A stretch of 24,449 bases of DNA from Candidatus Methylomirabilis sp. (GTDB lineage Bacteria > Methylomirabilota > Methylomirabilia > Methylomirabilales > Methylomirabilaceae), in NCBI GenBank assembly GCA_041498975.1, contig JBGQJI010000029.1, positions 1 to 24,449 of the forward strand. Direction: 5' to 3'. The notes beneath the pieces were generated by a model. That model made no database searches. It was not told where the DNA came from and was given only the letters and a program-made list of their open reading frames with translations. Positions within the stretch are counted from its first letter, which is position 1. Every line of letters begins with the position of its first letter. Shown in pieces: positions 1 to 19,716 of this stretch. Made by a program: the position numbers and the translations under genes.

Positions 1-479
1 AAGCAGTGGGGCCGCACGCAGGCCGCGCGGTTGAACCTGAACAGGACATGGGTGGGGCAGACCAGCCAGTACTCGTGCATCGTGTAGAGCTTGATGCCGG
101 TGCCGTACTCCAGGATCTTGGGGCCGCCGACCAGCGAGATGTTGTGGTAGTGGATGACGTCAAAGCCTCTGTCCAGAATCTGCCGCATGCGCGTCGCCTT
201 GAAGAAGGGGACCCCGGTCTGCTGGGTGGCCAGGGGGGAGAGCAGGCCGACCGGGCTCTTCAGCCCGTGGACGGTCACGTTGGGATGATCGTCATAGGGC
301 GTCACCGGCTGCTGTCGGGCTAGCAGGCGGTACGCATCGATGCAGTGGATCACCTCCACCCGATGCCCCCTTTGCGCCAGCGCATTGGACAGGCGGTGGA
401 CAAAGACCCCATCCCCCCCGAAGTTGTACGGGGGGTAGAAAGTCGTGATCATGCAAAAGCGGAGGGGGCGCACGCTCAT
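1..479 (-). CDS. Glycosyltransferase family 4 (GT-B), N-terminal part; runs off the window start
   Basis: Not in the ORF track because no stop lies in the window. Hand translation from ATG 479 gives MSVRPLRFCMITTFYPPYNFGGDGVFVHRLSNALAQRGHRVEVIHC...FDVIHYHNISLVGG...MHEYWLVCPTH, a close paralog of 2245..3480. Confidence 0.9.
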   Translation of the reverse strand, partial: MSVRPLRFCMITTFYPPYNFGGDGVFVHRLSNALAQRGHRVEVIHCIDAYRLLARQQPVTPYDDHPNVTVHGLKSPVGLLSPLATQQTGVPFFKATRMRQILDRGFDVIHYHNISLVGGPKILEYGTGIKLYTMHEYWLVCPTHVLFRFNRAACVRPHC

Positions 480-489
480 CTGCCGTGTA

Positions 490-1260
490 CTACCGCCGTG
501 CCTCGGCTTTTACCGCCCTGACCGTGATCAACACTTCATAATCGGGGTCACAGTGATCCAACTCCTCCTCGCGCAGGTCCTCCGCCGCCAGTCCATAGAG
601 AAAGGCGGTCGCCGCAAAGACATTCCCATACACCCTGAGCCTCACGTTCTCTGCCGGAAAGGCTTCCCGGAACAGCCGATGCGCCGAATCGCATGTCAAC
701 CGCCAGTACTCGCCCCAGGGGTCCACGCCCTCGCGGCGGCTGATCTTGCTGAGGCCGTGGGTGGTCACCAGCAGCACGCCGCCCGGCTTCAGGATGCGAT
801 GGAGATGACGCAATGCGGCCCGCACATCGTAGATCATCTGAAGCGTCTGGATCAAGATGATGCTGTCGAAGGTCTCCGACGGCACCCGGTCGGCGCAGGT
901 CAAATCCGCCACGATGGTCGCCTTCGGGTTGCCCGCGGCCACATGCAGCACGTCGGTCTTGGTGACGCGGTCGCCTCCGAACCTTCGAGTATAGGAGTCG
1001 TCCCCGATCTCCAGCACATGCCCCCTGATGTCACGGCTGTGGGCGGAGAGGAACTGTCCGATGTAGTAACGGTCGATCGGCAGGCCCCGCTCAAACCCGA
1101 AAATCCGGCTGATCGGCGTCAGCCGCCGCAGGTTGCCAAACTGCACCGTCCCCGCCCGGGGCCACTGGATCCGGTGCCGCCGCTGCTGCGCGCGCACCCA
1201 CCGACGAACCTCGCCGGGCATCAGCGCTTCTGCGAGCGCTCTCATCCAATCGCTTCGCAT
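490..1260 (-). CDS. Class I SAM-dependent methyltransferase-fold protein of the type found in glycosyltransferase clusters
   Basis: Motifs GLPIDRYYI, VLEIGDD (atypical motif I), ADLT, FDSIILIQTLQMIYD and LHRILKPGGVLLVT. An alternative ATG at 1245 overlaps the cmoA stop as ATGA. Confidence 0.85.
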   Translation of the reverse strand: MRSDWMRALAEALMPGEVRRWVRAQQRRHRIQWPRAGTVQFGNLRRLTPISRIFGFERGLPIDRYYIGQFLSAHSRDIRGHVLEIGDDSYTRRFGGDRVTKTDVLHVAAGNPKATIVADLTCADRVPSETFDSIILIQTLQMIYDVRAALRHLHRILKPGGVLLVTTHGLSKISRREGVDPWGEYWRLTCDSAHRLFREAFPAENVRLRVYGNVFAATAFLYGLAAEDLREEELDHCDPDYEVLITVRAVKAEARR

Positions 1261-2039
1261 CGAATGGGCTTTCCCCTTCTCTTGTCGCGCCGAACCGATG
1301 GTAATGGCTTCACGCAGAGGAACCCGGCAAAGTTATACCATTGGAAGAAGGTCTCGACGATCTGAAAGCCATTGCGTCGAAACAGCTCAAGGTTTTCATC
1401 GATGCGGTACGGGATGAGCACGTTCTCGAGGGCTTCCCTCTTGCGCAAAATTTCCTCCTCAGAGTAGCGGTTTCGCCGCTTGAAATCGTAGTAGAAGTCG
1501 TTGAAGAAGCGATTCATGTGCGTGTCGTTGGTCAGAACCTTCTCCGTCACCACCAGCGCGCCGCCTTCGACCAGTCCGTTCGAGATCCACTTGATCAGGT
1601 TGTCCCTGCGCAAGGGGTTGATGAATTGCAGCGTCCAGCACGTCGTCACCACGCTGGCGTTCTCCAGGAATAACTGAGAGAGGTCTCCATTGAGGTCGCC
1701 ATATCGCACCTCGATCCGATCCTCGAACCCGGTCTCCTTGATTTTGCGCTTCGCCCGCTCGAGCATCGGGATGGAGCTATCGTACCCGATCAGGCGTGCC
1801 GGCCCCTCGATCTCTCGACACAGATTGATCAGGGTGGTGGCGGTAGAGCACCCCAGGTCGTAGATATCCGTACCCTCAAGCCAAAATCTTCTCCCGATTT
1901 CCGTGATTATGTATTGCTGCTCAAGGTAGAACGGGATGCTGCGCACCAGCATGTCGTCGAATACCTCGGCGACCTCGGCGTTGAACTCGAACTCACTCGG
2001 CCGCGCTGCGGTTTTCAGAAACACCTCATCCCGCCTCAT
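1242..2039 (-). CDS. cmoA: Carboxy-S-adenosyl-L-methionine synthase (CmoA family)
   Basis: Colinear by eye with E. coli CmoA: VAEVFDDMLVRSIPFY, YDLGCST, ENASVV, TLQF, GGALVVTEK, DFKRRNRYSEEEI, KREALENV, FQWYNF. Strong RBS (GAGGAGG) upstream. Confidence 0.9.
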   Translation of the reverse strand: MRRDEVFLKTAARPSEFEFNAEVAEVFDDMLVRSIPFYLEQQYIITEIGRRFWLEGTDIYDLGCSTATTLINLCREIEGPARLIGYDSSIPMLERAKRKIKETGFEDRIEVRYGDLNGDLSQLFLENASVVTTCWTLQFINPLRRDNLIKWISNGLVEGGALVVTEKVLTNDTHMNRFFNDFYYDFKRRNRYSEEEILRKREALENVLIPYRIDENLELFRRNGFQIVETFFQWYNFAGFLCVKPLPSVRRDKRRGKPIRCEAIG

Positions 2040-2244
2040 TTCAACGCCTCCCTCTCGGCATCCAGACCCCAGCAGTGCAGACCCAGGCGAAGTGCCCTCT
2101 TGGCGGTTCCCCGGTGTTGCATGATGTCATCTTCCCGGCATGACCCGCAGCTCCGATATCAGAAGGTGCTCGATCCCTTTCCTCGATTTCTTGTCGCGAG
2201 TCCTCTGCCATATCGGACCGCAGCAACGTCGGCGCGAAAATGCC

Positions 2245-3480
2245 TCAGCCGAGCGGTTGGCCCTTTTTCGCTGCGATCTCACGAATCAGCGCAAGGTACC
2301 GCTCCATATGAACTTCGGCCGTCCAGTTCCGCCGGTAACCCTTATAGCCACACAACCCCAGTTCACGCCGGGATGACGGGTCCGCCAATAACCGGTCCAT
2401 CGCTGCGACGAGCTCGCCCTCGGTGGCATAGACGAATCCGCCATTGCTCTCTGCGATAATCTCCGGCATTCCACCCAGGTTCCTGACAATCGCCGGCGTT
2501 TGCTGCCTGAAGGCCTCAAGAATTACCAGCGGGAAGACTTCGAAGCAGATGGATGGGACAATCACAGCCACAGCCTGTCGGTACAGGGCCTGCAGTGGCC
2601 GCTCGGACAGGTGGCCCAGGAAGCGGATGTTCACGCTATCCTTGGCTACCTCCCGCAATTCGGGCTCATAGGTGCCCCTCCCAGCGACCAACAACTTTGC
2701 CTTGCGGTAGTGACGGAACACGGGAATGAGCGTCTGCAGACCCTTGACCTTCTCCAGGCGTCCAACGAAGAGGAAAAAAGGCTCCTCCGACGCCTCGCCC
2801 ACAGACTGTTCGGAGGCTGCCGCCGCCGAGGACACGAATAGGGGCAGTTGGACAATGGGAACGTCGAGCCCCGCTTGCTTATGCTTGTCCATGCTGAAAC
2901 GGGTCGGAGCAATAAAGGCATCCACATGCTTGACCGAATCTTCCAGGAGGCCGAGATTCCTCCACCACTGCGGCGGGCGCTTATAAGTGAGGCTGCAGAG
3001 GAAGCAGCGCGGCCGGATGCACGGGGCGCGGTTGTATCGGAAGAGCACATGGGTGGGGCATATCAACCAGTACTCATGCATCGTGTAGAGCTTGATGGCT
3101 TGGCCGTACTCCAGGATCTTAGGCCCGCCAACCAGCGAGATGTTGTGGTAGTGGATCACGTCGAAGCGCATGTCGAGGATCTGGCGGATGCGGCCCGATT
3201 TGAAGAACGGATAGCCAGTCTGCTGAGTGGCCAGCGGCGAGAGAAAGCCGAACGGGCTCCTGAGCCCGTGGACGGTCACATTCGGATGATCGTCGTACCG
3301 TTCCGCCGGCTCCCGGCGGGCTCTCAGGCGGTATGCGTCGATACAGTGGATCACCTCCACCCGATGCCCGCGCCGCGCCAGTTCGTTGGCCAGGCGGTGC
3401 ACGAAGATCCCATCTCCCCCAAAGCTGTAGGGCGGATAAAACGTCGTGACCATGCAGAAGCGCAGCGGTCGCTCCATCAT
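2245..3480 (-). CDS. Glycosyltransferase family 4 (GT-B)
   Basis: N-terminal FYPP..GG, FVGRLEKVKG, and the E-x7-E motif EVFPLVILEA followed by GGMPEII. Start overlaps the deacetylase stop as ATGA. Confidence 0.92.
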   Translation of the reverse strand: MMERPLRFCMVTTFYPPYSFGGDGIFVHRLANELARRGHRVEVIHCIDAYRLRARREPAERYDDHPNVTVHGLRSPFGFLSPLATQQTGYPFFKSGRIRQILDMRFDVIHYHNISLVGGPKILEYGQAIKLYTMHEYWLICPTHVLFRYNRAPCIRPRCFLCSLTYKRPPQWWRNLGLLEDSVKHVDAFIAPTRFSMDKHKQAGLDVPIVQLPLFVSSAAAASEQSVGEASEEPFFLFVGRLEKVKGLQTLIPVFRHYRKAKLLVAGRGTYEPELREVAKDSVNIRFLGHLSERPLQALYRQAVAVIVPSICFEVFPLVILEAFRQQTPAIVRNLGGMPEIIAESNGGFVYATEGELVAAMDRLLADPSSRRELGLCGYKGYRRNWTAEVHMERYLALIREIAAKKGQPLG

Positions 3481-3810
3481 CGCGCGCTGAGGACTCCGAG
3501 GGACACGGCCCGGCGGAGCCGCCGGGGGATGCTGCGCGCCCTGATGTACCAGGGGAACAGACGCGTCGGCACCAGCGCGAAGAGCCGCTCGGTCCGGAGG
3601 TAGTAGGCATCCACGCGCTCGAGGGCGTAGGGGTCGCTCCGTAAGGTGACCAGGCCGAGCCGGTCGGAGCAGGCGCAGGCGAAGTGCTCGCGCACGAGGG
3701 CGCGGGAGCGCGCGTCGGAGCGCCCGTAGGGGTAGGCGAAGGTCGTAACCGGGGTGCCCATGGCCTCCTGGAGGATCGCCTGCGCGTCACAGACCTCCGC
3801 CCGGAGGCGG
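3431..3810. repeat. Direct repeat copy 1 (~380 bp), covering the deacetylase 3' half and the first codons of the GT4
   Basis: Matches 24045..24424 at offset 20614, with about 10 mismatches by hand count. Confidence 0.95.
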
Positions 3811-4247
3811 GCGGGGGGCAGCCGGGTCAGGTCCGGGTGGGTGCACGTGTGGGCGCCCAAGGTGAGCCCCGCCTGCTGCAGCACCCGGATCTCGCCCCAG
3901 CTCAGCATGGGCCGCCCGGTGAGGGCGGGCAGCCGCGCGGTCGGCGTCCGGGGCCCCCGGGGGCCCACCGTGAGGAACACCGTGGCCGTCATGCCGTAGC
4001 GCTGCAAGACTGGGAGCGCCTCCTCGTAGACGCTCCGGTAGCCGTCGTCGAAGGTGAGGACGACGGCCCGGGGCGGCCAGGGTGCCCCCCGGCGCAGGCC
4101 GGCGACGGCCTCCAGGAGGCTGCATGTCCGGTACCCGGCGGCGTGCAGCCGGGCGAGGCCCTGGCGGAAGACGGCCGGGGGGACCGCGAGGACCGCGGGG
4201 GCCTCCTCGAGGGCATGGAAGGTCAGGATGGGGAGGGCGGGGGACAT
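3477..4247 (-). CDS. Polysaccharide deacetylase (NodB/CE4 family)
   Basis: CE4 motifs PILTFH, VLTFDDGY, GAHTCTHPDL and FAYPYG. Confidence 0.93.
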   Translation of the reverse strand: MSPALPILTFHALEEAPAVLAVPPAVFRQGLARLHAAGYRTCSLLEAVAGLRRGAPWPPRAVVLTFDDGYRSVYEEALPVLQRYGMTATVFLTVGPRGPRTPTARLPALTGRPMLSWGEIRVLQQAGLTLGAHTCTHPDLTRLPPARLRAEVCDAQAILQEAMGTPVTTFAYPYGRSDARSRALVREHFACACSDRLGLVTLRSDPYALERVDAYYLRTERLFALVPTRLFPWYIRARSIPRRLRRAVSLGVLSAR

Positions 4248-4852
4248 GAGCCCTTTCTAACCTCGTCCGAATCAGCCTGCTCTACATCCAGGTTGCCCTG
4301 AGCCAGCATCGTAACGGCTTTCTACGTTCTCTCTTCTTCGACAAACTCGACCTGAACCGTCTGAAGGTGGAAGCAGATTCTTTCCACCGCGACGAGGTGG
4401 GGGCGAAGCACAGAAACTGCGGGCGGATCATTGTTCAATGGTGCTTTTCTCGACTGGCATGATTCTTGTTTGTGACCGGTAATGGGAGTTCCCGAATGAT
4501 TCCTCATCTGAACACCTTGGTTTGCTGTAGGCCTAGGGCGTGCCTCCCGTGATCCGCCAGGGGCGCATTTTCGACCGCGAGCGCACACCCTGCCTAAATG
4601 CCTCGATACGAAGTCATCTCCACATCCGCAACCCCCCATTATCAAGCACATTCCTCGCACGTCTCCAAGAAGCTGCGGCGCTGAGTCGGGCAGGCTGACA
4701 CGCAAGCCCAAGGACCCAGGCGGGGCCCGTGGCCGCAACAGGAGATCCTTGCGACATATCTCTTGCCGATAGGGCGGTGTCCTCGCCAGACAACTGACGA
4801 CGACTACGCTCTCACGCCGAAGGCGGGGTAGGACGTCTGCACTCTTCCAACC

Positions 4853-6166
4853 TCATCGGAACCTGCGTTCTTGCCGATTAGGTTCAGCGTGTTGCAACCT
4901 CTTGAGTGGCGGCCGGAGATTGCGGAAGAAAGCCTGTAGGAATCGCCAGAGTCCGACAGCTAGGGGGAGAGGGTCGTCCCATGCTCCGATAGCTCTGGCC
5001 TTCGTTCCGCGGAGCGAGCGAAGCCAACTCCCGAGGGTGAGGGACCCGGACTTGCGAAGGGTGAGATAGGCTTGGACGTCCCATTCTTCGTTGACACCCT
5101 TGACTCCCGGACGGAAGCAGCTAGGGGTTCCGCTGCCAGGATCGAATCCAGCCAGATACTGGTATCCAATCCAGGGGAAATCGACACCCGCACTTATCGC
5201 CAACTGATTCGACGAATGGGTCCTGGCGTTGACTTCCATCAGGCGATAGGTATGGTCTCGGGCGTCGAACTTGAATTCCACGCCGACGAAGCCCCGATAG
5301 TTGATTGTTCGCAGGAGACTACGGCTCAGCGCAGCCACCTCTGGCGCTTCGACGGTGATGTGTAACGAGCTATCTCCGTAAAGGGGAGGATACTGGCGAA
5401 GCTTTCGCTTGGTTAACCAAGCCAGCTCGCGGCCTTCAGCGCCCCAAAATGCCAGATAGTCAAAGATGGCATGATCCCCGCCCGGGATAATCTCCTGCAC
5501 CATGAAGAGTGTGTCGCCACCGCTGACCCGTGCGTACTCCGAAATCAGTTCCGCCGGCGAGTGGACCACAACAACCTTCTTGCCCAACTTCCTGCGGCCT
5601 ATATGCGATTTGTACGGTTTGAGCAGGCAGGGATAGGGGACATCCGCTGATAGGCGTCGCACCTCTTCGACTGACTCGGGGAAATAGGTCCTCGGGATCG
5701 GGGTCCCCGCTGCTTGAGCGATACCGTACTGGAGCCGCTTGTTTACGATCCGCTCCACCGTCTCAGGATCGGGAACAATGAACCGGAAGTGACGCCGGAG
5801 TATTTCCGCATGCTGAGAAACCAGCAGGCAGTACACATCTGATGCCGGGAAGAGGATACCAGGAGCGTTCAGCCGTGAACCCAGGAATTGCAGCAGGTCG
5901 ATCCATTCCTGCGGATGTTCGTCGGCCGGTCGGAGCAGGATCACTTTGCCAAAGCGCGTGTAGGTTCCGATCAAACGGTCGCTGTCCAACATGAGCGTTG
6001 GGACCCGGCGTCTTCCCAGGCTCCGCACGAAGCTGAGGCCGTTGACAGAACCATCCAGGATGATCGCAGGTGGGGCCATCCCATGGCAATTCCTGAGCCA
6101 TTCTTCGATCTTCTTGGCGGCGTAAGGCGCATTTCCAGCCAATTGGTTCCTCAGGAGGATCTCCAA
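4853..6166 (-). CDS. ATP-grasp carboxylate-amine ligase (D-aspartate-ligase-like)
   Basis: GLSFVRSLGR, LFPASD, PCLLKP, MVQEIIPG, KLRQYP, VEFKFD...LMEVNAR. Start is uncertain (TTG 6166 or ATG 6079). Confidence 0.85.
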   Translation of the reverse strand: MEILLRNQLAGNAPYAAKKIEEWLRNCHGMAPPAIILDGSVNGLSFVRSLGRRRVPTLMLDSDRLIGTYTRFGKVILLRPADEHPQEWIDLLQFLGSRLNAPGILFPASDVYCLLVSQHAEILRRHFRFIVPDPETVERIVNKRLQYGIAQAAGTPIPRTYFPESVEEVRRLSADVPYPCLLKPYKSHIGRRKLGKKVVVVHSPAELISEYARVSGGDTLFMVQEIIPGGDHAIFDYLAFWGAEGRELAWLTKRKLRQYPPLYGDSSLHITVEAPEVAALSRSLLRTINYRGFVGVEFKFDARDHTYRLMEVNARTHSSNQLAISAGVDFPWIGYQYLAGFDPGSGTPSCFRPGVKGVNEEWDVQAYLTLRKSGSLTLGSWLRSLRGTKARAIGAWDDPLPLAVGLWRFLQAFFRNLRPPLKRLQHAEPNRQERRFR

Positions 6167-6326
6167 CCCGTCCCGCTCAACCTGAACATCGCGGACCGTC
6201 CGATAATTGTCAGTCTCGGCTCCTCAGAGCTCAAAAATCAGGTCGGGTGAATCGGGTACGACCCCTCCCGGTTATGATCCCATGCAAACCAGGTTCCGCA
6301 GCCAAGTGGACGGAGCCGATCAGCGA

Positions 6327-7580
6327 TCAACTTCCCGAGGAGAGGCCCTCAGCGGGCAGAAAATCCCTCCGTTCACTCTTGCCTTGCGTCCTGCTCCTCC
6401 AGGACCACCATATCCGATTTGCGATATATTTCAATGGCCGATACACGTAGTAGAAGGGCAACAGCCACGCGTGGCGGACGTGGTAGGCCCAACGCAGATG
6501 GCTTGCCGAAGGGAAAAGCATCCAGGCTACGACACGAACTCGAGGGCCCCAACCATTGGTTCTCCTGATCAGCCCCTTTAACTCTCCACGCGTGACCGCC
6601 AGCGCCGCAAATAAAGCGACCTCTCGACCGATGGCGTCCGTGCGTGAAGCAGCCACCCTCAAGCGTCCCAAAACGGCCGCAGGAATCTGAGCATTTAGAC
6701 CCTCCGCTAGATAACCAACCGTCACGGATAGCGGCAGTGCCAGATGGCTGCGGAGGGCACATTCCAGGAAAACGTCCCAGTCCAGATTCGGATGACAAGC
6801 CACGATATGCCAGGCATCGCACACCCACTGCAGCGACTGGTTGCTGCCGGAACAAGATGGCAGGCCACAGACGTGGAGGAGATTGTCGGCCGGTGAGAGG
6901 ACGCGCGTTGAAACGCCCGCAACGACCTGAGTCTGACTGCGTGCCCGCATGTCTGCTAATGGCGGACTGTAGTACGGTATTCGAAACAGACGGGCGTGCA
7001 GCTCAAGGGGAAGGCCGGACTCATGCGTGAGCTTCACGTGATCCTGGCCAGCACCAGACTCTTTCCCTGAGAGCGTAAATCCTAGTGGAGACAACATGCT
7101 GGCAGCACGTAAAAGATCACCCTCTTCTAGGAGAATATCGATATCATGGCTGTGACGAAGCGCCGGATCACCGTACACACTTTCCCCAAGCGCAGCGCCC
7201 TTGACCAGGATCTGCGAAACCCCTGCGCTAGTCAGCGTGGTGAGAACCTCCCGGAGGATGCGGGAATAGATCTTGGTACGCAACTCTTCTTTCAAAGAGG
7301 CAGTTCGTAGATACGTTAACAGCGAGTCGTCAACCACCGCACCGGTTCGTCGCAGTGCGACAAGCAGGAGGGGCGCCACCGTCTTGACCCCCTGTCTATC
7401 ATCTCCCAACAAGGCCCTAGGATCACCGGCTCTCTCCCGCCACACACCCCATGCTTTGCGTCCCGAGTCGCCGGAGTAGAGACAAGCACGCAGCAGCCAT
7501 GTCTGCTCCTCCGTTGGCAGGATAGCCGACAGGGTATCCGAAAGCGGAGGTTGCTCAAAAGCCGCTTCCCTCAGGCGCAT
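6327..7580 (-). CDS. Nucleotidyltransferase family protein (NTP_transf_5-like)
   Basis: LVKGAAL...YGDPALRHSHDIDILL, LELHARLF, WVCDA, LDWD. ATG 7580 with GAGGG upstream is preferred over the 7613 start in the ORF track. Confidence 0.85.
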   Translation of the reverse strand: MRLREAAFEQPPLSDTLSAILPTEEQTWLLRACLYSGDSGRKAWGVWRERAGDPRALLGDDRQGVKTVAPLLLVALRRTGAVVDDSLLTYLRTASLKEELRTKIYSRILREVLTTLTSAGVSQILVKGAALGESVYGDPALRHSHDIDILLEEGDLLRAASMLSPLGFTLSGKESGAGQDHVKLTHESGLPLELHARLFRIPYYSPPLADMRARSQTQVVAGVSTRVLSPADNLLHVCGLPSCSGSNQSLQWVCDAWHIVACHPNLDWDVFLECALRSHLALPLSVTVGYLAEGLNAQIPAAVLGRLRVAASRTDAIGREVALFAALAVTRGELKGLIRRTNGWGPRVRVVAWMLFPSASHLRWAYHVRHAWLLPFYYVYRPLKYIANRIWWSWRSRTQGKSERRDFLPAEGLSSGS

Positions 7581-7801
7581 TGAAATACGCCCTCGAACGT
7601 GTGATCGACACAAGGCCCCATCATTACCGCGATACCCTTACTCACACCAGTGCAGCGCGAGGAACTGACCCAACCAAGCGCCGCCAGCATATCAGTTGCC
7701 TGCCCCAGGCCACAGGGCCGAGCGCGAAAGCCGGCCGTGATCTCCTCGGTTTCATCGGTTTCTCCCGATCCCATTCTCACGGTTACCATCCCCCAGTCAC
7801 A

Positions 7802-8485
7802 TTATGGCGTACGGCAACGTTGACGCCTGACCGAGTCTCTCAAAACGTTCAGAAGGTTGTCGTGGAAGTCTCGGGAACTATACGTGGTGTTGGCGTCGTG
7901 CATGCGTTTCTGAACCAGTACCTGGGGAATAACGCCCATTGGCACGTCCATATCCTTGGCCTTGGCGTACCAGTCAACGTCTTCCGCTGTAGTGTACTCC
8001 GGGTTGAATCTTCCCACGAGGCCGAACACTGATCTGCGCGCCACCAGTGTTTCCATCATGCGGCCGACATGGTCGCCTTCCAGTAACTCCTCCTTGAACC
8101 TGGATGGGACGTGCACCCCTGGTTCGAGAAAGAATTTTACCCTTGTAACAGTGTATTGGATTTCCGGATGACGAGTCATATAGCCGATCTGGAGGGCCAA
8201 TTTGTTGGGCATCCACAGATCGTCGTGCGAGAGAAATGCAAAGAACTCCCCATCAGCAGCGTCAATACCGACGTTCCAAGCGTCACCAACACCCCGATTG
8301 GTTTGTCGGATATATCGAACGACTCCATACGATCTAGCGATCTCGGCAGTCCTGTCAACCGACTGACCATCTACGACGATGAGCTCGATTGGCTTATAGT
8401 TCTGCTGAAGAACGCTGTCAATTGCCGAGGCCAAGAAGCGCTCACCGTTCTTTACCGCGATGATTGCGCTCACCAAAGGCCCCAT
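7802..8485 (-). CDS. Glycosyltransferase family 2 (GT-A), the most divergent paralog
   Basis: LVSAIIAVKNGERFL, VVDGQSVD, AFLSHDDLW, EDVDW. ATG 8485 has GAGGAGG upstream. Confidence 0.9.
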   Translation of the reverse strand: MGPLVSAIIAVKNGERFLASAIDSVLQQNYKPIELIVVDGQSVDRTAEIARSYGVVRYIRQTNRGVGDAWNVGIDAADGEFFAFLSHDDLWMPNKLALQIGYMTRHPEIQYTVTRVKFFLEPGVHVPSRFKEELLEGDHVGRMMETLVARRSVFGLVGRFNPEYTTAEDVDWYAKAKDMDVPMGVIPQVLVQKRMHDANTTYSSRDFHDNLLNVLRDSVRRQRCRTP

Positions 8486-8793
8486 CAATTCCCTGATCCC
8501 TCCTCGTGCACTCCGCACTCCTATCGGCGACCTCTCAGCAATGAATGGCAAGGTGCGGCCGCACGTTCTGTCTCCGACCTTGGCAAACATGTGATCTTGC
8601 CCATACCCTCCAGATCATCATTCATGCTGACCCGAGGATCGCTCGTACGAGGCGGTACCGCAGGATCGTCTTGGCACTCAGTGTCTCTCCTCTGTGCCCC
8701 AGCAGACAAGCTCCAACATGTGAAACCTTCGCGACGCGCGGCAGAAACAGGCTCCGGGGAATGCAGACTCCCCGATGTGCCAGCTCAAGCCGC

Positions 8794-9540
8794 TCAGTCC
8801 GTCTGCTGGCAGTGTGTAGCGTGGAACGGAACGGGTCCGTGGGCCGGACCATCCTGACGGCGCCGCCGATCGAGAGACGCCTTGACGATCCCCAAGAGTG
8901 CATCTTGACTGGCGGAGGCCTCGACACGGCTCATGTTGGTCCGGTGCAAGCGGCGGCATACGAGGACATCCGGCAATAGCTCCATGACCGCCCCCTGCTC
9001 CCCCGCACGCAAAAACCACTCGGTATCATCTCCATGCTGCAGCCTGACGTTGAACTGACCTACCACGTCGAAGAGTCTCCGCCGGGCCAGGAGCGTTTGA
9101 GTGATATAGCCGGGCAACGCCCGCGAAAGGCGATGATCCCGCAACCGCTTCGCTTCTTCGCGCAGTTCCGGAACCCAGAAGTTCTGCACGTGCGTGACAC
9201 AGAGGTCCAGTTCGGGGCGGGCCTCAAACCGGGCCATCTGGCGAGCCAACTTCTCCGGATGCCACAGGTCGTCCGAGTCGAGAAAGGCGACAAACTCACC
9301 TCGTGCGGCGCTCACCCCCAGGTTACGAGTCGATGGCAACCCTGTGTGAGGCTGCCACAGGTGCCGAATTTGCTCGCCGTAGCCGGCCACCAGTTCAGGC
9401 GTGCCATCGGTCGAGCCATCGTCGGCGACGATGATCTCCAGCGGCCGATAGGTCTGCGCCCGGATGCTGTCCAGCGCCTCCCGCAGGTAGCGCTCGCCGT
9501 TGAAGACGGGCACGATACAACTGATCAGGGGGAGCGTCAT
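8794..9540 (-). CDS. Glycosyltransferase family 2 (GT-A)
   Basis: ISCIVPVFNGERYL, ADDGSTD, FLDSDDLW, GDDTEWF. Confidence 0.93.
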   Translation of the reverse strand: MTLPLISCIVPVFNGERYLREALDSIRAQTYRPLEIIVADDGSTDGTPELVAGYGEQIRHLWQPHTGLPSTRNLGVSAARGEFVAFLDSDDLWHPEKLARQMARFEARPELDLCVTHVQNFWVPELREEAKRLRDHRLSRALPGYITQTLLARRRLFDVVGQFNVRLQHGDDTEWFLRAGEQGAVMELLPDVLVCRRLHRTNMSRVEASASQDALLGIVKASLDRRRRQDGPAHGPVPFHATHCQQTD

Positions 9541-9552
9541 GACACAGCCGGC

Positions 9553-10299
9553 CTAGCGCTTTTGCTGCCAGCCTGAACCCGAGAACTCAGTGGACCAGGG
9601 GACCGCCTCATTCCGAAGTCGCCGACGATCGAGTGACCCTTTCACGATGTGCAAGTACTCATCGCGGCTCGCAGATGCCTCGCGCCGGCTGAGGTTGCAG
9701 TGGTGCATACGATGATATGTCAACACACCGGATAATAATTCCATGACCGCGCCATGCTCCGCGGCCCTTAAGAACCACTCCGTGGCGTCCCCATGCCGAA
9801 ATGCCGTATTGAACCGGCCCACCCGATCGAAGAGGGTGCGCCGCGCCAGGAGCGTGCCTGTGTAATAACCGGGCATCGCCTGTGCGCGCGGATGATCACG
9901 ATATTGCAGTTCTTCTTGGATCAGTTCGGGAATCCAGAAGTTCCGAACGTGCGCCACGCACAGGTCGAGTTCGGGGCGCGCCTGAAACCGGGACATCTGG
10001 CGGGCCAACTTCTCCGGATGCCACAGGTCGTCTTGGTCGAGAAAAGCCACGAATGGACCCTGCGCCGCGCTTAGGCCGAGGTTTCGCGTCGCTGCCGGCC
10101 CGGAGGTGGACTGCCGCAAGAGGCGAACCTCCTCGCTATAGGAAACCACCACTGCCCGCGAACCATCGGTCGAGCCATCGTCGGCGACGATGATCTCCAG
10201 CGGCTGGTAGGTCTGCGCTCGGATGCTGTCCAGCGCCTCCCGCAGGTAGCGCTCCCCGTTGAAGACGGGCACGATGCAACTGATCAGAGGAAGCGTCAT
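9553..10299 (-). CDS. Glycosyltransferase family 2 (GT-A)
   Basis: ISCIVPVFNGERYL, ADDGSTD, FLDQDDLW, GDATEWF. Confidence 0.93.
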   Translation of the reverse strand: MTLPLISCIVPVFNGERYLREALDSIRAQTYQPLEIIVADDGSTDGSRAVVVSYSEEVRLLRQSTSGPAATRNLGLSAAQGPFVAFLDQDDLWHPEKLARQMSRFQARPELDLCVAHVRNFWIPELIQEELQYRDHPRAQAMPGYYTGTLLARRTLFDRVGRFNTAFRHGDATEWFLRAAEHGAVMELLSGVLTYHRMHHCNLSRREASASRDEYLHIVKGSLDRRRLRNEAVPWSTEFSGSGWQQKR

Positions 10300-10309
10300 G
10301 ACAGGTGGC

Positions 10310-11071
10310 CTAGCGCTTTTGCTGCCAGCCCGAACCCGGGAACTGATAGGGGGCCGCTACCGACCCATCCCGACGTGGGCGGCGCCGATCAAGTGATGCC
10401 TTTAGCACCTGCAATAGGACGTCTCGTTCCCTTGAGTTAACGCGAGTCAAACCCCAGCTTATGTTGGTCTGGTGTAAACGGCGATACACGAGAACCTCAG
10501 GCAGGATCTCCATGACCGCCCCGTGCTCGGCCGCATGCAAGAACCAGTCTGTATCCTCTCCAGCAGGCAATCCGGTGTTAAACGCGCCCACCATATCGAA
10601 GAGCGTGCGCCGTGTCAGGAGCGCCTGGCAAACATACCCGGGTATCGCCGGCGCGAGGCGGGGATGGCCTCGATACCCCGAGGCCTCCCCCGCGAGCTCC
10701 GCGACCCAGAAGTTTTGCACGTGCGTCACACAGAGGTCGAGGTCGAGCCGCGCCTGAAAGCGGGCCATCTGGCGGGCCAACTTCTCCGGATGCCACAGGT
10801 CGTCCGCGTCGAGGAAGGCCACGAAGTCGCCTTGAGCCGCGCGTAGCCCCAGATTCCGCGCGGCCGCCGGCCCCGCGTTTGGCTGTGTCAGGTAGCGCAC
10901 GTGCTCCCCGAAGCCAGCCACCACGGCCGCCGTCCCATCGGTCGAGCCATCGTCGGCGACGATGATCTCCAGCCGCCGATAGGTCTGCGCCCGGATGCTG
11001 TCCAGCGCCTCCCGCAGGTAGCGCTCGCCGTTGAAGACGGGCACGATACAGCTAATCAAGGGAGGTTTCAT
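10310..11071 (-). CDS. Glycosyltransferase family 2 (GT-A)
   Basis: True start MKPPLISC at ATG 11071, which overlaps the kinase stop as ATGA. Motifs ADDGSTD, FLDADDLW, GEDTDWF. Confidence 0.93.
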   Translation of the reverse strand: MKPPLISCIVPVFNGERYLREALDSIRAQTYRRLEIIVADDGSTDGTAAVVAGFGEHVRYLTQPNAGPAAARNLGLRAAQGDFVAFLDADDLWHPEKLARQMARFQARLDLDLCVTHVQNFWVAELAGEASGYRGHPRLAPAIPGYVCQALLTRRTLFDMVGAFNTGLPAGEDTDWFLHAAEHGAVMEILPEVLVYRRLHQTNISWGLTRVNSRERDVLLQVLKASLDRRRPRRDGSVAAPYQFPGSGWQQKR

Positions 11072-12183
11072 GACCCGTTTGCCATCGCCAGAAGCTCCTC
11101 TACACGCGCCGGAATCTCCGACAGATCGTGGCCCAACTCCAGCCAGTAACTGGAAACCCGCTCGACGAGCTGAACCAGTCTCCCGAAGCCACAATCCTCC
11201 GGGCTGAGTGCCATGAAAAGGGAGCTCGGCCCCACTGCAAGGAGGGCTTCGCCTTTCGAAGCGGGGCGAATCCGTGACTGAGGGGCATCCACGATACGTG
11301 GAAGCGCCAGCGCCTTGATCGGCACGGAACATTCGAGCCGCTTCGGAAAGACCTGCGAAAGCAGAATGAGAGACTTTTCTTCGTAGGGAAATCTGCCCTT
11401 AATGGCATGAGGAATCAAGCCTGGAAACCGCGCCAGGTCATCCGTCTCCAAGAACACTGAATTATAGAGACTGTGGCCCACGAAGGAACCCTCCGGCAGA
11501 CGTTGCAGGCCGACAAAGTCTTCACTGAGATAGTTAAACCCAGCACACAGGCATGCCAAGGTTGAGGTGGACTTTCCAGACCCACTCCTGCCGGCAAAGA
11601 GGACCCCTTGCTGATTTCGGGAAACCAGGCCGGCGTGGATCACCTGTACATTGCGGTCGTTGTGCCACATCACCAACGGCCTGGTTAAGGGTTTTCCGCG
11701 TTCATAGATGAAGACATCATCGCTCCATGCTATGGAGCCGATGATGTGGTCAGCTTTCCGATCCAAGCAGGTGAAGGTATTCGGCAACCGCTGCCCCAAA
11801 TACCGGCCGTCGGGCGATACTGCCGTGACATCTGCCCATCCGGGGTCACGACGCGCCGGACCGAGACGAAGGCGGATGTTCGTTTCATTCTCATCCCAGA
11901 GGTCGATGGTGAGCTGAGGGTCGGGCGAGACGGATCCGTTCATTCGCAAATGGGAGAACGGGCGAACAATCTGCTCCGCCAGGTCCCGCCCCACGATACG
12001 TATCCGCACGATCTGACCCGCGAACGTGTAGTGCGACTCGAGGAGGCGATCTGGATTTGTCGCAACCGCTTGTCCAAAAGCAGTCCGCATCCTGCTGAAC
12101 ATGGCCTCGCCATCCAGGATGGCCCAGCCGCGGGCCACGCCCGCATATCGCACCGGAACCGTCTGCGCAGACGCGTCCTCCAT
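11068..12183 (-). CDS. HPr kinase/phosphorylase-like P-loop kinase
   Basis: IHAGLV, Walker A GRSGSGKST, acidic motif YLSEDFV and C-terminal YWLELG, typical of HprK-related kinases. RBS AGAAGGA upstream. Confidence 0.85.
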   Translation of the reverse strand: MEDASAQTVPVRYAGVARGWAILDGEAMFSRMRTAFGQAVATNPDRLLESHYTFAGQIVRIRIVGRDLAEQIVRPFSHLRMNGSVSPDPQLTIDLWDENETNIRLRLGPARRDPGWADVTAVSPDGRYLGQRLPNTFTCLDRKADHIIGSIAWSDDVFIYERGKPLTRPLVMWHNDRNVQVIHAGLVSRNQQGVLFAGRSGSGKSTSTLACLCAGFNYLSEDFVGLQRLPEGSFVGHSLYNSVFLETDDLARFPGLIPHAIKGRFPYEEKSLILLSQVFPKRLECSVPIKALALPRIVDAPQSRIRPASKGEALLAVGPSSLFMALSPEDCGFGRLVQLVERVSSYWLELGHDLSEIPARVEELLAMANGS

Positions 12184-12203
12184 GTCCTTCTTCTCCGATC
12201 GGT

Positions 12204-12656
12204 TTACCCTGGGGTTCCCTCGGTTGGCTCCTTCCAGGGGATCTCCTGGAGCGTGGGCATGGGCGGATCGAGGGCGAGCAGGTCTCCCATGTCACGATAG
12301 ATATTGAGCATGGGCGATTCGTAAGGTTTTCTATCTTCCGACTGAGTGTTCTCGTTCTGCCGAGGTGGTGGCGCGAGGTGTGACAGAACAACCAGGTTTT
12401 CTTGCATGAGTTCCCCCGCCAGCCGTTCGACGTCGGCTTGTGCCTGTTTGTCCGAGACGTCATAGCGCGAGACGATCGCCCCGATGATCTCCTGCAAACT
12501 GTGCCCCCCTTCGATCATCTCCCAGAGCAGACCCCCGACCTTGTCCATACTATAGTACATCCCGTTGGAGAGGTTGATGATGATCGCCTCGCCATCGAGG
12601 ACCTTGGCGGCGACCTCCGCCTCATTGGGGCGCAGGCGATTCTGCAGCGTCAGCAT
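12204..12656 (-). CDS. PqqD-family/RiPP recognition element (RRE) protein with a C-terminal leader-like extension
   Basis: AKVLDGEAIIINLSNGMYYSMDKVGGLLWEMI...YDVSDKQAQADVERLAGELMQENLV is a PqqD-type pattern. ATG 12656 has GGAGG about 6 nt upstream. A tail of roughly 55 aa follows the domain. Confidence 0.9.
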   Translation of the reverse strand: MLTLQNRLRPNEAEVAAKVLDGEAIIINLSNGMYYSMDKVGGLLWEMIEGGHSLQEIIGAIVSRYDVSDKQAQADVERLAGELMQENLVVLSHLAPPPRQNENTQSEDRKPYESPMLNIYRDMGDLLALDPPMPTLQEIPWKEPTEGTPG

Positions 12657-13770
12657 GAGCAGCCTCCTGGACCAGTTTCCGATAGAGCGCGACATAGGCA
12701 TCCACGCAACGTTCCAGGCTGAATAGCTTCTGTGCCCGGTGACGAGCGGTCTGACCCATCAGTATCGCTGATTCCGGCTGTTCGAGGAGCATGGCGATCG
12801 CCTCGGCGAGGGCCCCGCTGTCCTCCTTCTCGACGAGCAATCCGGTCTGTTGATGGACCACGACTTCCGGAAGCCCCCCGACATCTGTCGCCACGATAGG
12901 GCGGGCCATCAGGGCTGCTTCCAATGCCACTAGGCCGAAAGGCTCCTCCCATCGAGACGGCATGACGACCACTGTGGCAGTGTTGATCAGAGCCGGCACC
13001 TTGTCCGGGGCGACCCAGCCAGCGAAGTGTACAAGCCCGTTGAGGCCCAGCTCGGCCGCCTGCTGTTCCAACGCGGGCCGCGCCGCCCCATCCCCGGCAA
13101 TGACCAGGCGTGCATGAGGAAAGCGGCCACGCAGCGAGGCAAACGCCGTCAAGGCCAGATCAAAACCTTTATCATTGATAAGTCGGCCCAAGCACAGCAG
13201 CCGTGGCGTATCGCTGGGAAGGGGCTCAGGATTGAGGAGCGGCACGTCCAGGCCATTGTGAATGACGGAGGAGCAAGGGATGATCTCCGGCACTAGATGG
13301 CGAGCTTCGGCGAGCAACGCTGCCGAGCAAGCGGTGACCCAATCAGCACGGCGCAGAGTCTGTCCCACGAGGGTGTCATGGCCGAGATCCTTATTCGGCC
13401 CGGGTCCGTGCAATGTGACCAACAACGGCGCTCGATGAACATCTGCCGTCTGGAAATAGAAAAAGGCACTGGCACCGACGATGTGCATATGGACCACATC
13501 CGGTGCGAAGGCGCGCTTCAGCTTGGCGACCCGCTGCCGGACTTCCATCAGTTGGTCGATATTGGCATCGGCCAACGCCATCCAAAAAGGGAAACGGTAT
13601 ACGGGAACACCTTTGTACTGTGTTTCGCTCGGGAGATCTAGCGCAGCCTGCGGTGTCACCACGATGACCGCACAGTTACGCTCCCGCAAGGCCAGCGCTA
13701 CCTGCGCGAGCAGGACCTCGGCGCCCCCTATGATTGGCCAAAATGACTCCGACCATAGCAGGATCCGCAT
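12622..13770 (-). CDS. Glycosyltransferase family 4 (GT-B)
   Basis: MRILLWSESFWPIIGGAE (ATG 13770, GGAGGAGG upstream), LGRLINDKG, EPFGLVALEA, GGLPEVV. Confidence 0.93.
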   Translation of the reverse strand: MRILLWSESFWPIIGGAEVLLAQVALALRERNCAVIVVTPQAALDLPSETQYKGVPVYRFPFWMALADANIDQLMEVRQRVAKLKRAFAPDVVHMHIVGASAFFYFQTADVHRAPLLVTLHGPGPNKDLGHDTLVGQTLRRADWVTACSAALLAEARHLVPEIIPCSSVIHNGLDVPLLNPEPLPSDTPRLLCLGRLINDKGFDLALTAFASLRGRFPHARLVIAGDGAARPALEQQAAELGLNGLVHFAGWVAPDKVPALINTATVVVMPSRWEEPFGLVALEAALMARPIVATDVGGLPEVVVHQQTGLLVEKEDSGALAEAIAMLLEQPESAILMGQTARHRAQKLFSLERCVDAYVALYRKLVQEAAHADAAESPAPQ

Positions 13771-13974
13771 GACTAAGGCGACACCCTCCTCCTGGATGTG
13801 ATCAGCCTTGTAATGACCAGAGCAGTTTCTGTGCTCCCGCGCTCTCCAGCTCCAAGAATCTCGCCAAGCGGGTCTGTTGTTGCATTCATTTGCATGTTGC
13901 CGCATGCAGCCACACGACTGCCACACGGCACATCAACGAGTCTCTGCTCCCCCACTTCGGCCAGAGGCCGGGAA

Positions 13975-14691: not shown

Positions 14692-14721
14692 TTGTAGCCC
14701 TTGTTGAAAGCCAAGAACGTT

Positions 14722-15603: not shown

Positions 15604-15656
15604 AGAGCTCTCCGATTCACCCGCCAGCGTGGAGGCTCCTGGGACCTCGGCCAACC

Positions 15657-19564: not shown

Positions 19565-19621
19565 GGTCCCCCGCGCAGTGTGCAAGGTGCAGAGGCTGTG
19601 TTCCTTGTGCCCGAACAGCCG

Positions 19622-19651
19622 TGTAGGGGCGGTTCGCCAAACACCCCTACA
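19622..19651. repeat. GTAG-type REP-like palindrome
   Basis: TGTAGGGG-CGGTTCGCCAAACA-CCCCTACA: 8-bp inverted arms containing GTAG/CTAC, in an intergenic position. Confidence 0.6.
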
Positions 19652-19716
19652 GCGGGCTCCCACACCTAGGACACACTGGCCGATGGATTAGGATCTTATG
19701 AGGGGTCAGGATTGGG

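Follow-up and report, generated by a model that had tools for sequence, protein, structure and literature searches.

CmoA of E. coli converts SAM and prephenate into carboxy-SAM, and this chemistry is established. Carboxy-SAM is known to donate its carboxymethyl group to tRNA, to phage DNA and to two antibiotics or metabolites derived from peptides. On sugars, the deacetylase NodB of rhizobia frees an amine, which the class I methyltransferase NodS alkylates with SAM as the donor.

In the E. coli CmoA/CmoB system, which acts on tRNA (cmo5U34), Arg199 of CmoA forms a salt bridge with the cofactor carboxylate (excerpts of PMC3663124), and the CmoB triad Lys91, Tyr200 and Arg315 surrounds the carboxymethyl group (excerpts of PMC10491745 and PMC7496830). 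Two systems are described in the available portions of PMC10491745 in which a clustered CmoA homologue feeds a dedicated non-tRNA transferase, namely TglE/TglF (3-thiaglutamate) and MccS with MccB's C-terminal domain (microcin C, Bacillus amyloliquefaciens). The MccB domain is a non-CmoB methyltransferase fold that is strictly specific for carboxy-SAM (same excerpts). Synechococcus phage S-B43 carries CmoA, CmoX and CmoY and has 5-carboxymethylcytosine DNA; its CmoX is a homologue of C5-cytosine methyltransferases and holds the carboxylate of the cofactor through a key Arg, and the carboxymethyl group then serves as the handle for an ATP-dependent amide ligase (available text of PMC12783734). 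Methyltransferase folds other than CmoB that are fed with carboxy-SAM by a neighboring CmoA are thus known: phage CmoX, TglF and MccB's C-terminal domain (excerpts of PMC10491745 and PMC12783734).

We analyzed a window of 24,449 nucleotides from Candidatus Methylomirabilis sp. that encodes a CmoA-like protein (P0001) coupled to a methyltransferase-fold protein (P0002). The locus resembles the E. coli system in that P0001 belongs to the same family and keeps the Arg199 equivalent, and, as proposed here, in its division of labor between a carboxy-SAM synthase and a methyltransferase-fold enzyme that passes on the carboxymethyl group. It differs in having a partner other than CmoB and a glycan cluster as its setting, and in that the pair is an accessory one with a scattered distribution over phyla. 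No alignment of P0002 to CmoB could be made. The Tgl and Mcc systems act on a peptide thiol and on a peptidyl-nucleotide, and TglF resembles CmoB, whereas P0002 is of another family and its surroundings point to a sugar. As in the phage, CmoA has been recruited beside a methyltransferase of another family, and the setting recalls that of CmoX/CmoY in that ATP-grasp ligases are encoded in the window cluster and AsnB-like amidotransferases in related loci. However, the phage acceptor is cytosine C5 of DNA, and the phage CmoAs are about 34-37% identical to P0001. By analogy only, a deacetylase adjoining a class I methyltransferase resembles NodB/NodS and the cytoplasmic deacetylase HfsH. Unlike for NodS, the proposed donor is carboxy-SAM instead of SAM, and no sequence relationship was seen beyond the common fold; NodS appeared among the fold matches of P0002 at rank 48, which is not distinctive.

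Gene order and the carboxy-SAM synthase

All genes at the pair locus are on the minus strand, a point not given in the earlier note (Table 1). The arrangement in the earlier note, a full-length CmoA ORF flanked by two GT4 genes, was confirmed by a match of P0001 above the cut-off of TIGR00740 and by GT4 Pfam matches on both sides. P0004 matched PF00534 and PF13439 at 99 and 52 bits, and the truncated P0003 matched PF13439 at 39 bits; the two are paralogs, being 81% identical over 159 aa. The plus strand reads tcat at 1242-1245 and the minus strand therefore reads ATGA, so that the cmoA stop TGA (1244..1242) overlaps the ATG at 1245..1243. This ATG is in frame with the longer methyltransferase start at 1260, and the overlap of the cmoA stop with an in-frame ATG at 1245 was thus correctly described before. 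Also present as reported were the atypical motif I VLEIGDD in the methyltransferase ORF and both KREALENV, with its Arg kept, and TTCWTLQF in the CmoA ORF. Promoter and terminator scans of the minus strand were negative in the gap between the GT4 gene and cmoA. Base composition does not set the pair apart, with a GC content of 0.56-0.60 compared to 0.53-0.71 across the window.

Table 1. Features of the pair locus and of the window cluster
Feature	Position	Strand	Remarks
cmoA-family carboxy-SAM synthase (P0001)	1242..2039	-	265 aa; full-length CmoA; TIGR00740, 4GEK
Class I methyltransferase (P0002), type A, putative carboxymethyltransferase	490..1260	-	256 aa; generic Pfam models
cmoA/methyltransferase gene overlap	1242..1260	-	ATGA at 1242..1245; alternative upstream ATG 1258..1260; read from sequence
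GT4 glycosyltransferase (P0004)	2245..3480	-	411 aa; upstream of cmoA, 205-nt gap; PF00534, PF13439
Second GT4 gene (P0003), 5' part	3..479	-	downstream of methyltransferase; contig end cuts gene; PF13439
Polysaccharide deacetylase	3477..4247	-	256 aa; PF01522
PqqD	12204..12701		window cluster
HprK-related kinase	11068..12183		window cluster

P0001 scored 214 bits on TIGR00740 (carboxy-SAM synthase CmoA), above the NCBIfam equivalog cut-off of 193.3; the enterobacterial model NF011995 was not reached (157 vs 285). Its alignment with 4GEK, the E. coli CmoA, spans the whole protein (E 3.5e-42), and 4GEK and 1IM8 were both matched over the full length with E values of 1e-42 to 1e-40. A C-terminal tail of 18-20 aa extends past the usual 247 aa. 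By hand mapping, ten of the 13 cofactor contacts of E. coli CmoA (excerpts of PMC3663124) are identical in P0001, including Arg199, which aligns with R201 in KREALENV. The other 12 contacts compared were Tyr39, Asp62, Gly64, Ser66, Ala70, Asp89, Asn90, Asp117, Ile118, Asn132, Phe137 and Glu164, of which nine are identical. The changes are Asn132 to Cys (Cys134), Asn90 to Ser and Ala70 to Thr, with a conservative Ile118 to Leu, and Arg199, Glu164, Tyr39, Asp62, Asp89 and Asp117 are all kept. Some of the E. coli contacts at the changed sites are main-chain or water-mediated.

Arg occupies the Arg199 site in 51 of 52 members of the CmoA clade, and Cys the Asn132 site in 44 of the 52 rows. P0001 is 58-70% identical to CmoAs from genomes with CmoB; of ten such genomes checked, nine have no second CmoA. 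A reading of TTCWTLQF as the mark of an altered active site was rejected: the Cys-Trp is typical of the whole clade, including sole-copy CmoAs of genomes with CmoB, and the change is therefore not a sign of altered function. From its family membership we infer that P0001 makes carboxy-SAM from SAM and prephenate. Since the genome has a chorismate mutase gene, prephenate can be supplied.

The earlier note had reported no cmoB-like gene in the window, which held: PF08003 matched none of the 24 ORFs submitted to Pfam. It had also left room for a separate cmoA-cmoB pair elsewhere in the genome, and none was found. P0001 is the only CmoA of the source genome (84.9% complete), and the best stretch there for CmoB scored 27.5 bits against a cut-off of 275. 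CmoB did not exceed the cut-off in any of 41 genomes (the source and 40 relatives, 21 of them at least 90% complete). Neither CmoA nor the P0002 methyltransferase was found in the 19 same-genus genomes searched, and each was found in one of 21 same-order genomes. The absence of both genes from the 19 same-genus genomes indicates that the pair is accessory, and it was probably acquired horizontally. Among the 17 genomes carrying the pair, CmoB was not found in the assembled sequence of 15.

The methyltransferase family and its linkage to CmoA

P0002 matched only the generic Pfam models Methyltransf_23, _11 and _12, at residues 115-188 in the C-terminal half, and it did not match the CmoB models PF08003 and TIGR00452. 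Its AF2 model (pLDDT 72) matched many class I methyltransferases with E values of about 1e-6 and TM scores of about 0.4, and P0002 has the Rossmann-like fold, motif I and acidic adenine-binding residue of a class I SAM-dependent methyltransferase. E84, G86 and D119 are invariant. A Foldseek search of the PDB returned generic methyltransferases only, the best being SpnF, sarcosine/dimethylglycine methyltransferase and MitM (TM about 0.4). A profile search of PDB sequences gave four weak matches and nothing significant beyond generic methyltransferases, and the protein atlas gave generic names only. By sequence and model, P0002 belongs to an uncharacterised family of class I methyltransferases and has no close solved relative.

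A CmoA at least 55% identical adjoins 54 of the 98 P0002 relatives examined, which come from many phyla, and the adjacency of cmoA and the methyltransferase gene is therefore not due to chance. Genes in the neighbor loci were picked by a homology-weighted choice, because a greedy longest-ORF choice picked antisense ORFs in the high-GC DNA. On a quick tree the family splits into type A, which includes P0002, and type B, which is one nested clade. CmoA was found beside 54 of 60 informative type A loci, the remaining six having none within the flank examined, and beside none of 17 informative type B loci. Reciprocally, all 54 CmoA-linked copies were type A, and the methyltransferase gene is mostly directly downstream of cmoA on the same strand. 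The recurring neighborhood anticipated in the earlier note was also seen from the CmoA side: a P0002 homologue is present in 17 of 53 genome loci holding a CmoA relative, and some of the closest CmoA homologues also have GT4 and deacetylase genes alongside.

The earlier proposal that CmoA feeds the neighboring transferase is supported, since the genome and neighborhood checks suggested with it turned out in its favor. The linkage of type A agrees with it, but the close sister clade is never accompanied by CmoA, so that the methyltransferase family is not obligately tied to carboxy-SAM, and the fold works without an adjacent source of it. The two types differ at six positions flanking the active-site strands (M142, H168, R176, G178, E184 and Q191). 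At position 191, Gln is present in 53 of 54 CmoA-linked copies and P0002 has Asp (D191). The six positions are subtype-specific and polar or basic just after strands 4 and 5, which makes them candidate carboxylate-recognition residues, although the differences could concern the acceptor or the GT2 fusion rather than the cofactor. The loop 173-186 of P0002 was poorly modelled, with pLDDT below 50. The split gives a short list of positions for the choice between carboxy-SAM and the far more abundant SAM, and if type B is a reversion to SAM, it would show which residues turn a methyltransferase from one donor, methyl or carboxymethyl, to the other. Donor choice is of practical interest for engineered bio-alkylation (excerpts of PMC7496830).

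Six of 24 type B copies are full fusions of a GT2 domain to the methyltransferase; the seventh, L144, is an incomplete ORF that runs off the end of its contig, and one further fusion was found in relative G026. GT2 was confirmed by Pfam in the three fusions submitted. By virtue of these GT2 fusions, as read from the genes, the methyltransferase family is tied to glycans. Some type A genes seemed to have long N-terminal extensions that resembled CmoA-methyltransferase fusions, but these extensions read through cmoA out of frame; the loci examined thus contain no such fusion.

Glycan context and proposed carboxymethyl transfer

The deacetylase gene next to P0004 matched PF01522 at 100 bits (cut-off 23.1), with sub-threshold PgaB-, HfsH- and NodB-like matches, and inspection of its N-terminus by eye showed no evident signal peptide or membrane segment. 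Its homologues occur in type A and type B loci alike. Among loci 5 kb or longer, 11 of the 41 of type A and 12 of the 14 of type B hold a deacetylase, and 12 of 41 and 8 of 14, respectively, hold a GT4. Type A is thus only moderately associated with the deacetylase (11/41). A P0004 homologue (43-60% identity) adjoins CmoA in seven of the 53 genome loci, and elsewhere the pair is surrounded by flippase, glycosyltransferase and AsnB-like genes.

The family identity of P0001, the lack of CmoB, the ATGA coupling, the type A linkage, the glycan context and the precedents favor one reading, which we consider on balance probable: the pair is a portable two-gene cassette that makes carboxy-SAM and transfers its carboxymethyl group to a sugar. 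CmoA would turn SAM and prephenate into carboxy-SAM, and the translationally coupled P0002, the only carboxy-SAM consumer in sight, would bind it instead of SAM. P0002 would then move the carboxymethyl group onto a sugar of the lipid-linked glycan that the neighboring genes would build in the cytoplasm, before Wzx flipping. The acceptor would probably be the residue added by the adjoining GT4. In the most speculative step, drawn from the analogy with NodB/NodS, it may be an amine exposed by the adjoining cytoplasmic deacetylase, which would give an N-carboxymethyl amino sugar; an O-carboxymethyl ether would be an equally possible product.

A fuller reading, tentative and as a whole rather doubtful, would join these points. 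Surface glycans of bacteria and some archaea would carry carboxymethyl groups from carboxy-SAM; at this locus the GT4 would add an N-acetyl amino sugar, the cytoplasmic deacetylase would free the amine, and the type A enzyme would make an N-carboxymethyl (glycine-like) amino sugar. The new carboxylate may then offer amide ligases of the ATP-grasp or AsnB-like kind a handle, much as in CmoX/CmoY, and type B, which has no CmoA, would have returned to SAM in nature.

The gene data predict that bacterial sugars are decorated with carboxymethyl groups. A literature search, which covered main texts and few subscription journals, found no report of glycan carboxymethylation by carboxy-SAM or of natural carboxymethyl sugars in bacterial polysaccharides. 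If true, a glycan acceptor would be a new class of sugar decoration, in which a negative charge comes from an alkylation step instead of from a uronic acid, pyruvate or phosphate, and it would explain the CmoA genes scattered in organisms without CmoB.

Alternative explanations and other CmoA partners

The main competitor to the cassette is that P0002 is an ordinary SAM-dependent sugar methyltransferase, that carboxy-SAM goes to another consumer and that the linkage reflects shared regulation or hitch-hiking. The type B relatives, presumably SAM-dependent, are 59-71% identical to P0002, closer than the median type A; D191 replaces the type A Gln; and the Pfam and fold searches of P0002 pointed to a generic methyltransferase only. 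However, without a shared function it is difficult to account for CmoA beside 54 of 60 type A loci from many phyla, P0001 and P0002 are the only methyltransferase-fold genes among the 24 ORFs of the window submitted to Pfam, and most host genomes (15/17) yielded no CmoB. We regard this explanation as unlikely. It is much less probable still that the pair carboxymethylates a peptide or glycopeptide instead of a polysaccharide. The window does encode PqqD, the HprK-related kinase, two NTP_transf_5, two ATP-grasp and one radical SAM/SPASM gene, and TglF and MccB, which are known to use carboxy-SAM, take substrates derived from peptides (excerpts of PMC10491745). But homologues of the window NTP_transf_5 and ATP-grasp genes were found in none of 53 genome loci and in none of 80 metagenome loci around the pair, and what is conserved in company with the genes is GT4, the deacetylase, flippase and GT2 fusions.

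We see very little chance that P0002 is a non-orthologous replacement of CmoB and that the pair modifies tRNA or another nucleic acid. The classical role of CmoA is in tRNA cmo5U, and the N-terminal region of P0002 is very basic (RRWVRAQQRRHR). Phage CmoX also shows that nucleic acids can be targets (available text of PMC12783734). Yet a translation function does not fit the absence of both genes from all 19 same-genus genomes searched, and family members are fused to GT2 and lie in glycan clusters, with the basic segment kept in the fusions. Loss of carboxy-SAM synthesis by the CmoA-like protein, leaving a plain methyltransferase or another role, is just as improbable: the replacement of Asn132, Asn90 and Ala70 by Cys, Ser and Thr in the hand mapping could be read in this way, but Cys is the rule in the clade, also for the sole-copy CmoAs of CmoB genomes, and Arg199 and the five further contacts named above with it are retained.

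The CmoA clade also adjoins at least four other partner families. The partner families F4 and F18 and the partner in relative G021 were considered as divergent forms of P0002 and rejected, since in the BLASTP comparisons made they resembled neither P0002 nor one another; they are thus separate families and not divergent copies. The range of partner families beside the CmoA clade suggests a portable module for cofactor supply.

The cmoA-methyltransferase pair and its surroundings

The earlier note had described a full-length CmoA between two GT4 glycosyltransferase genes, and the ORFs together with the TIGR00740 and Pfam matches bore this out. The reported overlap between the CmoA stop and an in-frame ATG of a methyltransferase-fold ORF was confirmed by reading the sequence: the minus strand at 1245..1242 is ATGA, and its ATG is in frame with a longer start at 1260 of P0002, the class I methyltransferase-fold protein. 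The observation thus held in every detail. The model matched by P0001, the CmoA-family protein, is an equivalog model named 'carboxy-S-adenosyl-L-methionine synthase CmoA', and no specific NCBIfam model matched P0002. The pair, the GT4s and the deacetylase are all on the minus strand, and the deacetylase at 3477..4247 showed no signal peptide at its N-terminus when judged by eye. The 5' ends of the two GT4 paralogs (3..479 and 3004..3480; 81% protein identity) bracket the pair, an arrangement that may have been left behind by a duplication, or else by insertion of the cassette through recombination at a GT4 gene.

Features of the window with their coordinates and assignments
Feature	Coordinates	Strand	Assignment or position
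Second GT4, 5' part	3..479	-	Gene cut by contig end; downstream of P0002; 81% identity to first GT4
P0002, 256 aa	490..1260	-	Generic class I methyltransferase models (Pfam), residues 115-188 only
CmoA-family P0001, 265 aa	1242..2039	-	NCBIfam TIGR00740, 214 bits (cut-off 193.3)
GT4 glycosyltransferase	2245..3480	-	Pfam; upstream of cmoA, gap 205 nt
Polysaccharide deacetylase	3477..4247	-	PF01522; upstream of GT4 2245..3480
Deacetylase / ATP-grasp / NTP_transf_5 set, copy 1	3477..7613	-	
HprK-related kinase	11068..12183		
PqqD-family protein	12204..12701		
Radical SAM/SPASM enzyme	14722..15654		
Deacetylase / ATP-grasp / NTP_transf_5 set, copy 2	18344..22408	+	

A large glycan cluster fills the remainder of the window; besides numerous GT2 and GT4 genes it encodes a Wzx-type flippase. 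Within it (6327..15654 and 18344..22408) lie RiPP-like recognition and kinase genes, without a lasso cyclase. None of the 53 genome loci, and none of the best 80 out of 510 metagenome loci, contained a homologue of the NTP_transf_5 or ATP-grasp genes seen in the window, and therefore the peptide-type genes of the cluster are not conserved companions of the pair.

Residues 2 to 244 of P0001 aligned with the solved E. coli CmoA (4GEK, E 3.5e-42), and the protein also aligned with H. influenzae YecO (1IM8). The cofactor contacts given in PMC3663124 were mapped by hand onto the P0001-4GEK alignment. By this mapping P0001 keeps Tyr39, Asp62, Gly64, Ser66, Asp89, Asp117, Phe137 and Glu164 of E. coli CmoA, as well as Arg199 (R201 in P0001), which according to that paper forms a salt bridge to the cofactor carboxylate, and has Cys for Asn132, Ser for Asn90 and Thr for Ala70. 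Cys was present at the Asn132 site in 44 of 52 aligned P0001 relatives and Arg199 was kept in 51; judged from this alignment, the Cys-Trp of TTCWTLQF is a feature of the whole CmoA clade. The clade includes Gammaproteobacteria and Verrucomicrobiota CmoAs from genomes with CmoB, the tRNA cmo5U carboxymethyltransferase, and P0001 is 58-70% identical to the CmoAs of CmoB-bearing genomes. In nine of the ten such genomes checked the clade CmoA is the only one, and presumably feeds CmoB. The window's genome also contains a gene for chorismate mutase, the source of prephenate. Because of the cofactor contacts, the clade CmoAs occurring with CmoB and the prephenate source, P0001 is very probably a working carboxy-SAM synthase.

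A search for a separate cmoA-cmoB pair, which the earlier note had proposed, found none in the assembly that contains the window (241 contigs, 84.9% complete); P0001 is its only CmoA, and its best CmoB-like stretch reached 27.5 bits where the cut-off is 275. None of 41 genomes gave a CmoB match over the cut-off; the set comprised the window's own genome, 19 from its genus and 21 from its order, and included 21 genomes with a completeness of 90% or more and one closed genome. Among the 19 same-genus genomes neither a CmoA relative nor a P0002 relative was found, and among the 21 of the same order one genome had a CmoA relative (53% identity) and one a P0002 relative; these tallies include an unpublished genome (G027) that gave no significant match and on which no conclusion rests. 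The closest P0001 homologues (70-83% identity) belong to Ignavibacteriales, Thermodesulfobacteriota, Bathyarchaeia, Pirellulales, Gammaproteobacteria, Chloroflexota and others. Judged by this distribution the pair is accessory in the lineage, and its absence from same-genus genomes, with the closest CmoAs in distant groups, fits horizontal acquisition.

Transferase partners of CmoA relatives

In 53 CmoA loci from species-representative genomes, a P0002 homologue was found in 17, mostly directly downstream of CmoA. Same-clade CmoAs adjoined a protein of about 300 aa with a weak Methyltransf_23 match in 8 loci (L029-L031, L046, L048, L055, L069 and L070); it has no BLASTP relation to P0002 and is a candidate second family of carboxy-SAM users. 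A 358-382-aa protein without Pfam match followed CmoA in 4 loci, which are from Nitrospirota, Elusimicrobiota, Planctomycetota and Omnitrophota MAGs (L045, L049, L050 and L051); an ABC transporter comes next in two of them and a radical SAM/SPASM gene lies upstream in two. A PEMT/ICMT-type membrane methyltransferase (PF04191) came directly after CmoA in 6 loci, and such a pair may carboxymethylate a lipid or another hydrophobic acceptor. These loci (L057-L062) are from five Larkinella genomes and one Vicinamibacterales MAG, with a TetR regulator preceding CmoA. In 3 loci (L033, L034 and L039, from two Gammaproteobacteria and one Opitutaceae MAG) the partner was a 1,509-aa NRPS module (C-A-T) whose A domain contains a methyltransferase domain. 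CmoA is directly upstream of this module, and the three CmoAs form one clade. True CmoB (PF08003) adjoined only distant CmoA relatives (40-44% identity), in 3 loci. The only other CmoA of the window's order, from relative G021 (L007), has 53% identity and keeps Asn at the site of Asn132. Its gene overlaps the one downstream (together 641..2241), which encodes a 295-aa Methyltransf_25/11 protein belonging to a further, different family.

CmoB was searched for in 49 of the 53 host genomes, four near-identical Larkinella being left out and completeness not established, and was over the cut-off in 15. It was present in 2 of 17 hosts with the P0002-type partner, 0 of 8 with the 300-aa partner, 0 of 4 with the no-Pfam partner, 0 of 2 with the PEMT-type partner, 3 of 3 with the NRPS partner and 7 of 12 where no partner was seen. 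Since all three NRPS genomes also have CmoB, that adjacency could be coincidental or reflect dual use. In a quick maximum-likelihood tree all these partners fell within one CmoA clade (41 rows, SH-aLRT 97). Their labels were mixed there, the P0002-type label requiring at least four changes, and hence CmoA seems to have been combined repeatedly with different transferases.

Two subtypes of the P0002 family

For a reciprocal test, 98 P0002-family sequences were used: that of the window, 17 from the genome loci, and 80 from metagenome loci, the best out of 510. They split cleanly by segment 136-196 into type A (...LQMIYD...T[ST]HGIS-KIxRR[EL]GxDxWGEYW[HR]xTxQS), which includes the window's P0002, and type B (...LQFIYD...ATFPGIS-QISRYD-MDRWG[DE]YWRFTTLSA). 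Copies were counted as linked if the locus held a CmoA of at least 55% identity and as unlinked if at least 1 kb upstream had no such CmoA; the flanks of 21 copies were too short to judge. In this set, with its best 80 of 510 metagenome loci, all 54 linked copies were type A and the 23 unlinked copies were 17 type B and 6 type A, which gives linkage in 54 of 60 informative type A loci and 0 of 17 type B loci. Type B formed a single clade nested within type A (24 tips, FastTree support 0.999) and branched next to the window's gene, a placement with weak support (0.76). The median identity of the window's P0002 was 67% to type B and 61% to other type A.

Among the same linked and unlinked copies (best 80 of 510 metagenome loci included), the linked ones had Met at position 142 (50 copies), His at 168 (42), Arg at 176 (48, with Lys in 2 and His in 3), Gly at 178 (53), Glu at 184 (54) and Gln at 191 (53, versus Asp in the window's P0002). 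The unlinked copies had Phe (14), Pro (13), Tyr (10), a deletion (17), Asp (12) and Leu (16), respectively. In the AF2 model of P0002 (mean pLDDT 72, with 33-58 and 173-186 below 50), the six sites fall just after strand 4 (131-136) and strand 5 (157-166), a part of the fold that in class I methyltransferases lines both the transferred group and the acceptor. The Arg, His and Gln gained by the CmoA-linked subtype are, we infer, what recognition of a carboxylate would need, and would parallel Lys91, Tyr200 and Arg315 of CmoB and the key Arg of the phage DNA carboxymethyltransferase CmoX, as described in PMC10491745 and PMC12783734. Alternatively, the differences might bear on the acceptor.

A sugar as the putative acceptor

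From gene context, the acceptor of the carboxymethyl group is most likely a sugar. An N-terminal GT2 domain of 320-340 aa was found in 6 of 24 type B copies (L097, L130, L132, L137, L139 and L152); in a seventh, L144, the ORF is incomplete and runs off the contig end. Relative G026 has a 543-aa protein of the same GT2-methyltransferase build (L154, 1483..3114), with a PF01522 deacetylase after it. Pfam confirmed GT2 in all three fusions submitted. The fusions are 543-551 aa long, with the type B member as C-terminal domain and often a PF01522 deacetylase next, and look like an undescribed bifunctional glycan enzyme. Profiles built from homologues of the window's deacetylase and GT4 were searched against loci of at least 5 kb: the deacetylase was found in 11 of 41 type A and 12 of 14 type B loci, and GT4 in 12 of 41 and 8 of 14. 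The set of CmoA, methyltransferase, deacetylase and GT4 recurs in varying order in an Ignavibacteriales MAG (L020), a Geobacter MAG (L064) and a 'delta proteobacterium' MAG (L043). In L030, where the 300-aa partner is unrelated to P0002, the order is GT4 - deacetylase - partner - CmoA. Flippases, a pyruvyl transferase, AsnB-like amidotransferases and further methyltransferases surround other copies of the pair.

The earlier note had proposed that CmoA supplies carboxy-SAM to its neighbour for carboxymethylation of a sugar or glycopeptide. Comparative genomics supports this inference, and we consider carboxy-SAM-dependent glycan carboxymethylation by the pair somewhat probable. CmoA would make carboxy-SAM from SAM and prephenate, a reaction established for the family. 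The coupled type A enzyme would bind it and transfer -CH2-COO- to a nucleophile of a cytoplasmic, probably lipid-linked glycan intermediate made by the adjoining GT4, before flippase export. More speculatively, the nucleophile could be an amine freed by the adjoining cytoplasmic deacetylase, giving an N-carboxymethyl amino sugar, by analogy with the NodB/NodS logic in which a deacetylase frees an amine that is then modified. This N-carboxymethyl version is rather doubtful, and an O-carboxymethyl ether is equally possible.

According to PMC10491745, PMC12783734 and PMC7496830, carboxy-SAM transfer outside tRNA has as acceptors a peptide thiol (TglE/TglF), peptidyl-cytidylate (MccS with the MccB C-terminal domain) and DNA cytosine (phage CmoA/CmoX). 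A full-text literature search, with most subscription journals outside its coverage, found neither a glycan acceptor reported for carboxy-SAM nor a bacterial polysaccharide described as naturally containing carboxymethyl sugars. If true, the proposal would give a known cofactor system an acceptor class and a transferase family that are both new to it. Amide-forming enzymes might in turn act on the carboxylate, given that ATP-grasp genes are present in the window and AsnB-like genes in three related loci; such a step can be likened to that of the amide ligase CmoY in the phage system (PMC12783734). In the three loci (L024, L036 and L072), AsnB-like amidotransferases (Asn_synthase + GATase) are encoded no more than a few genes away from the pair and could amidate a carboxyl group.
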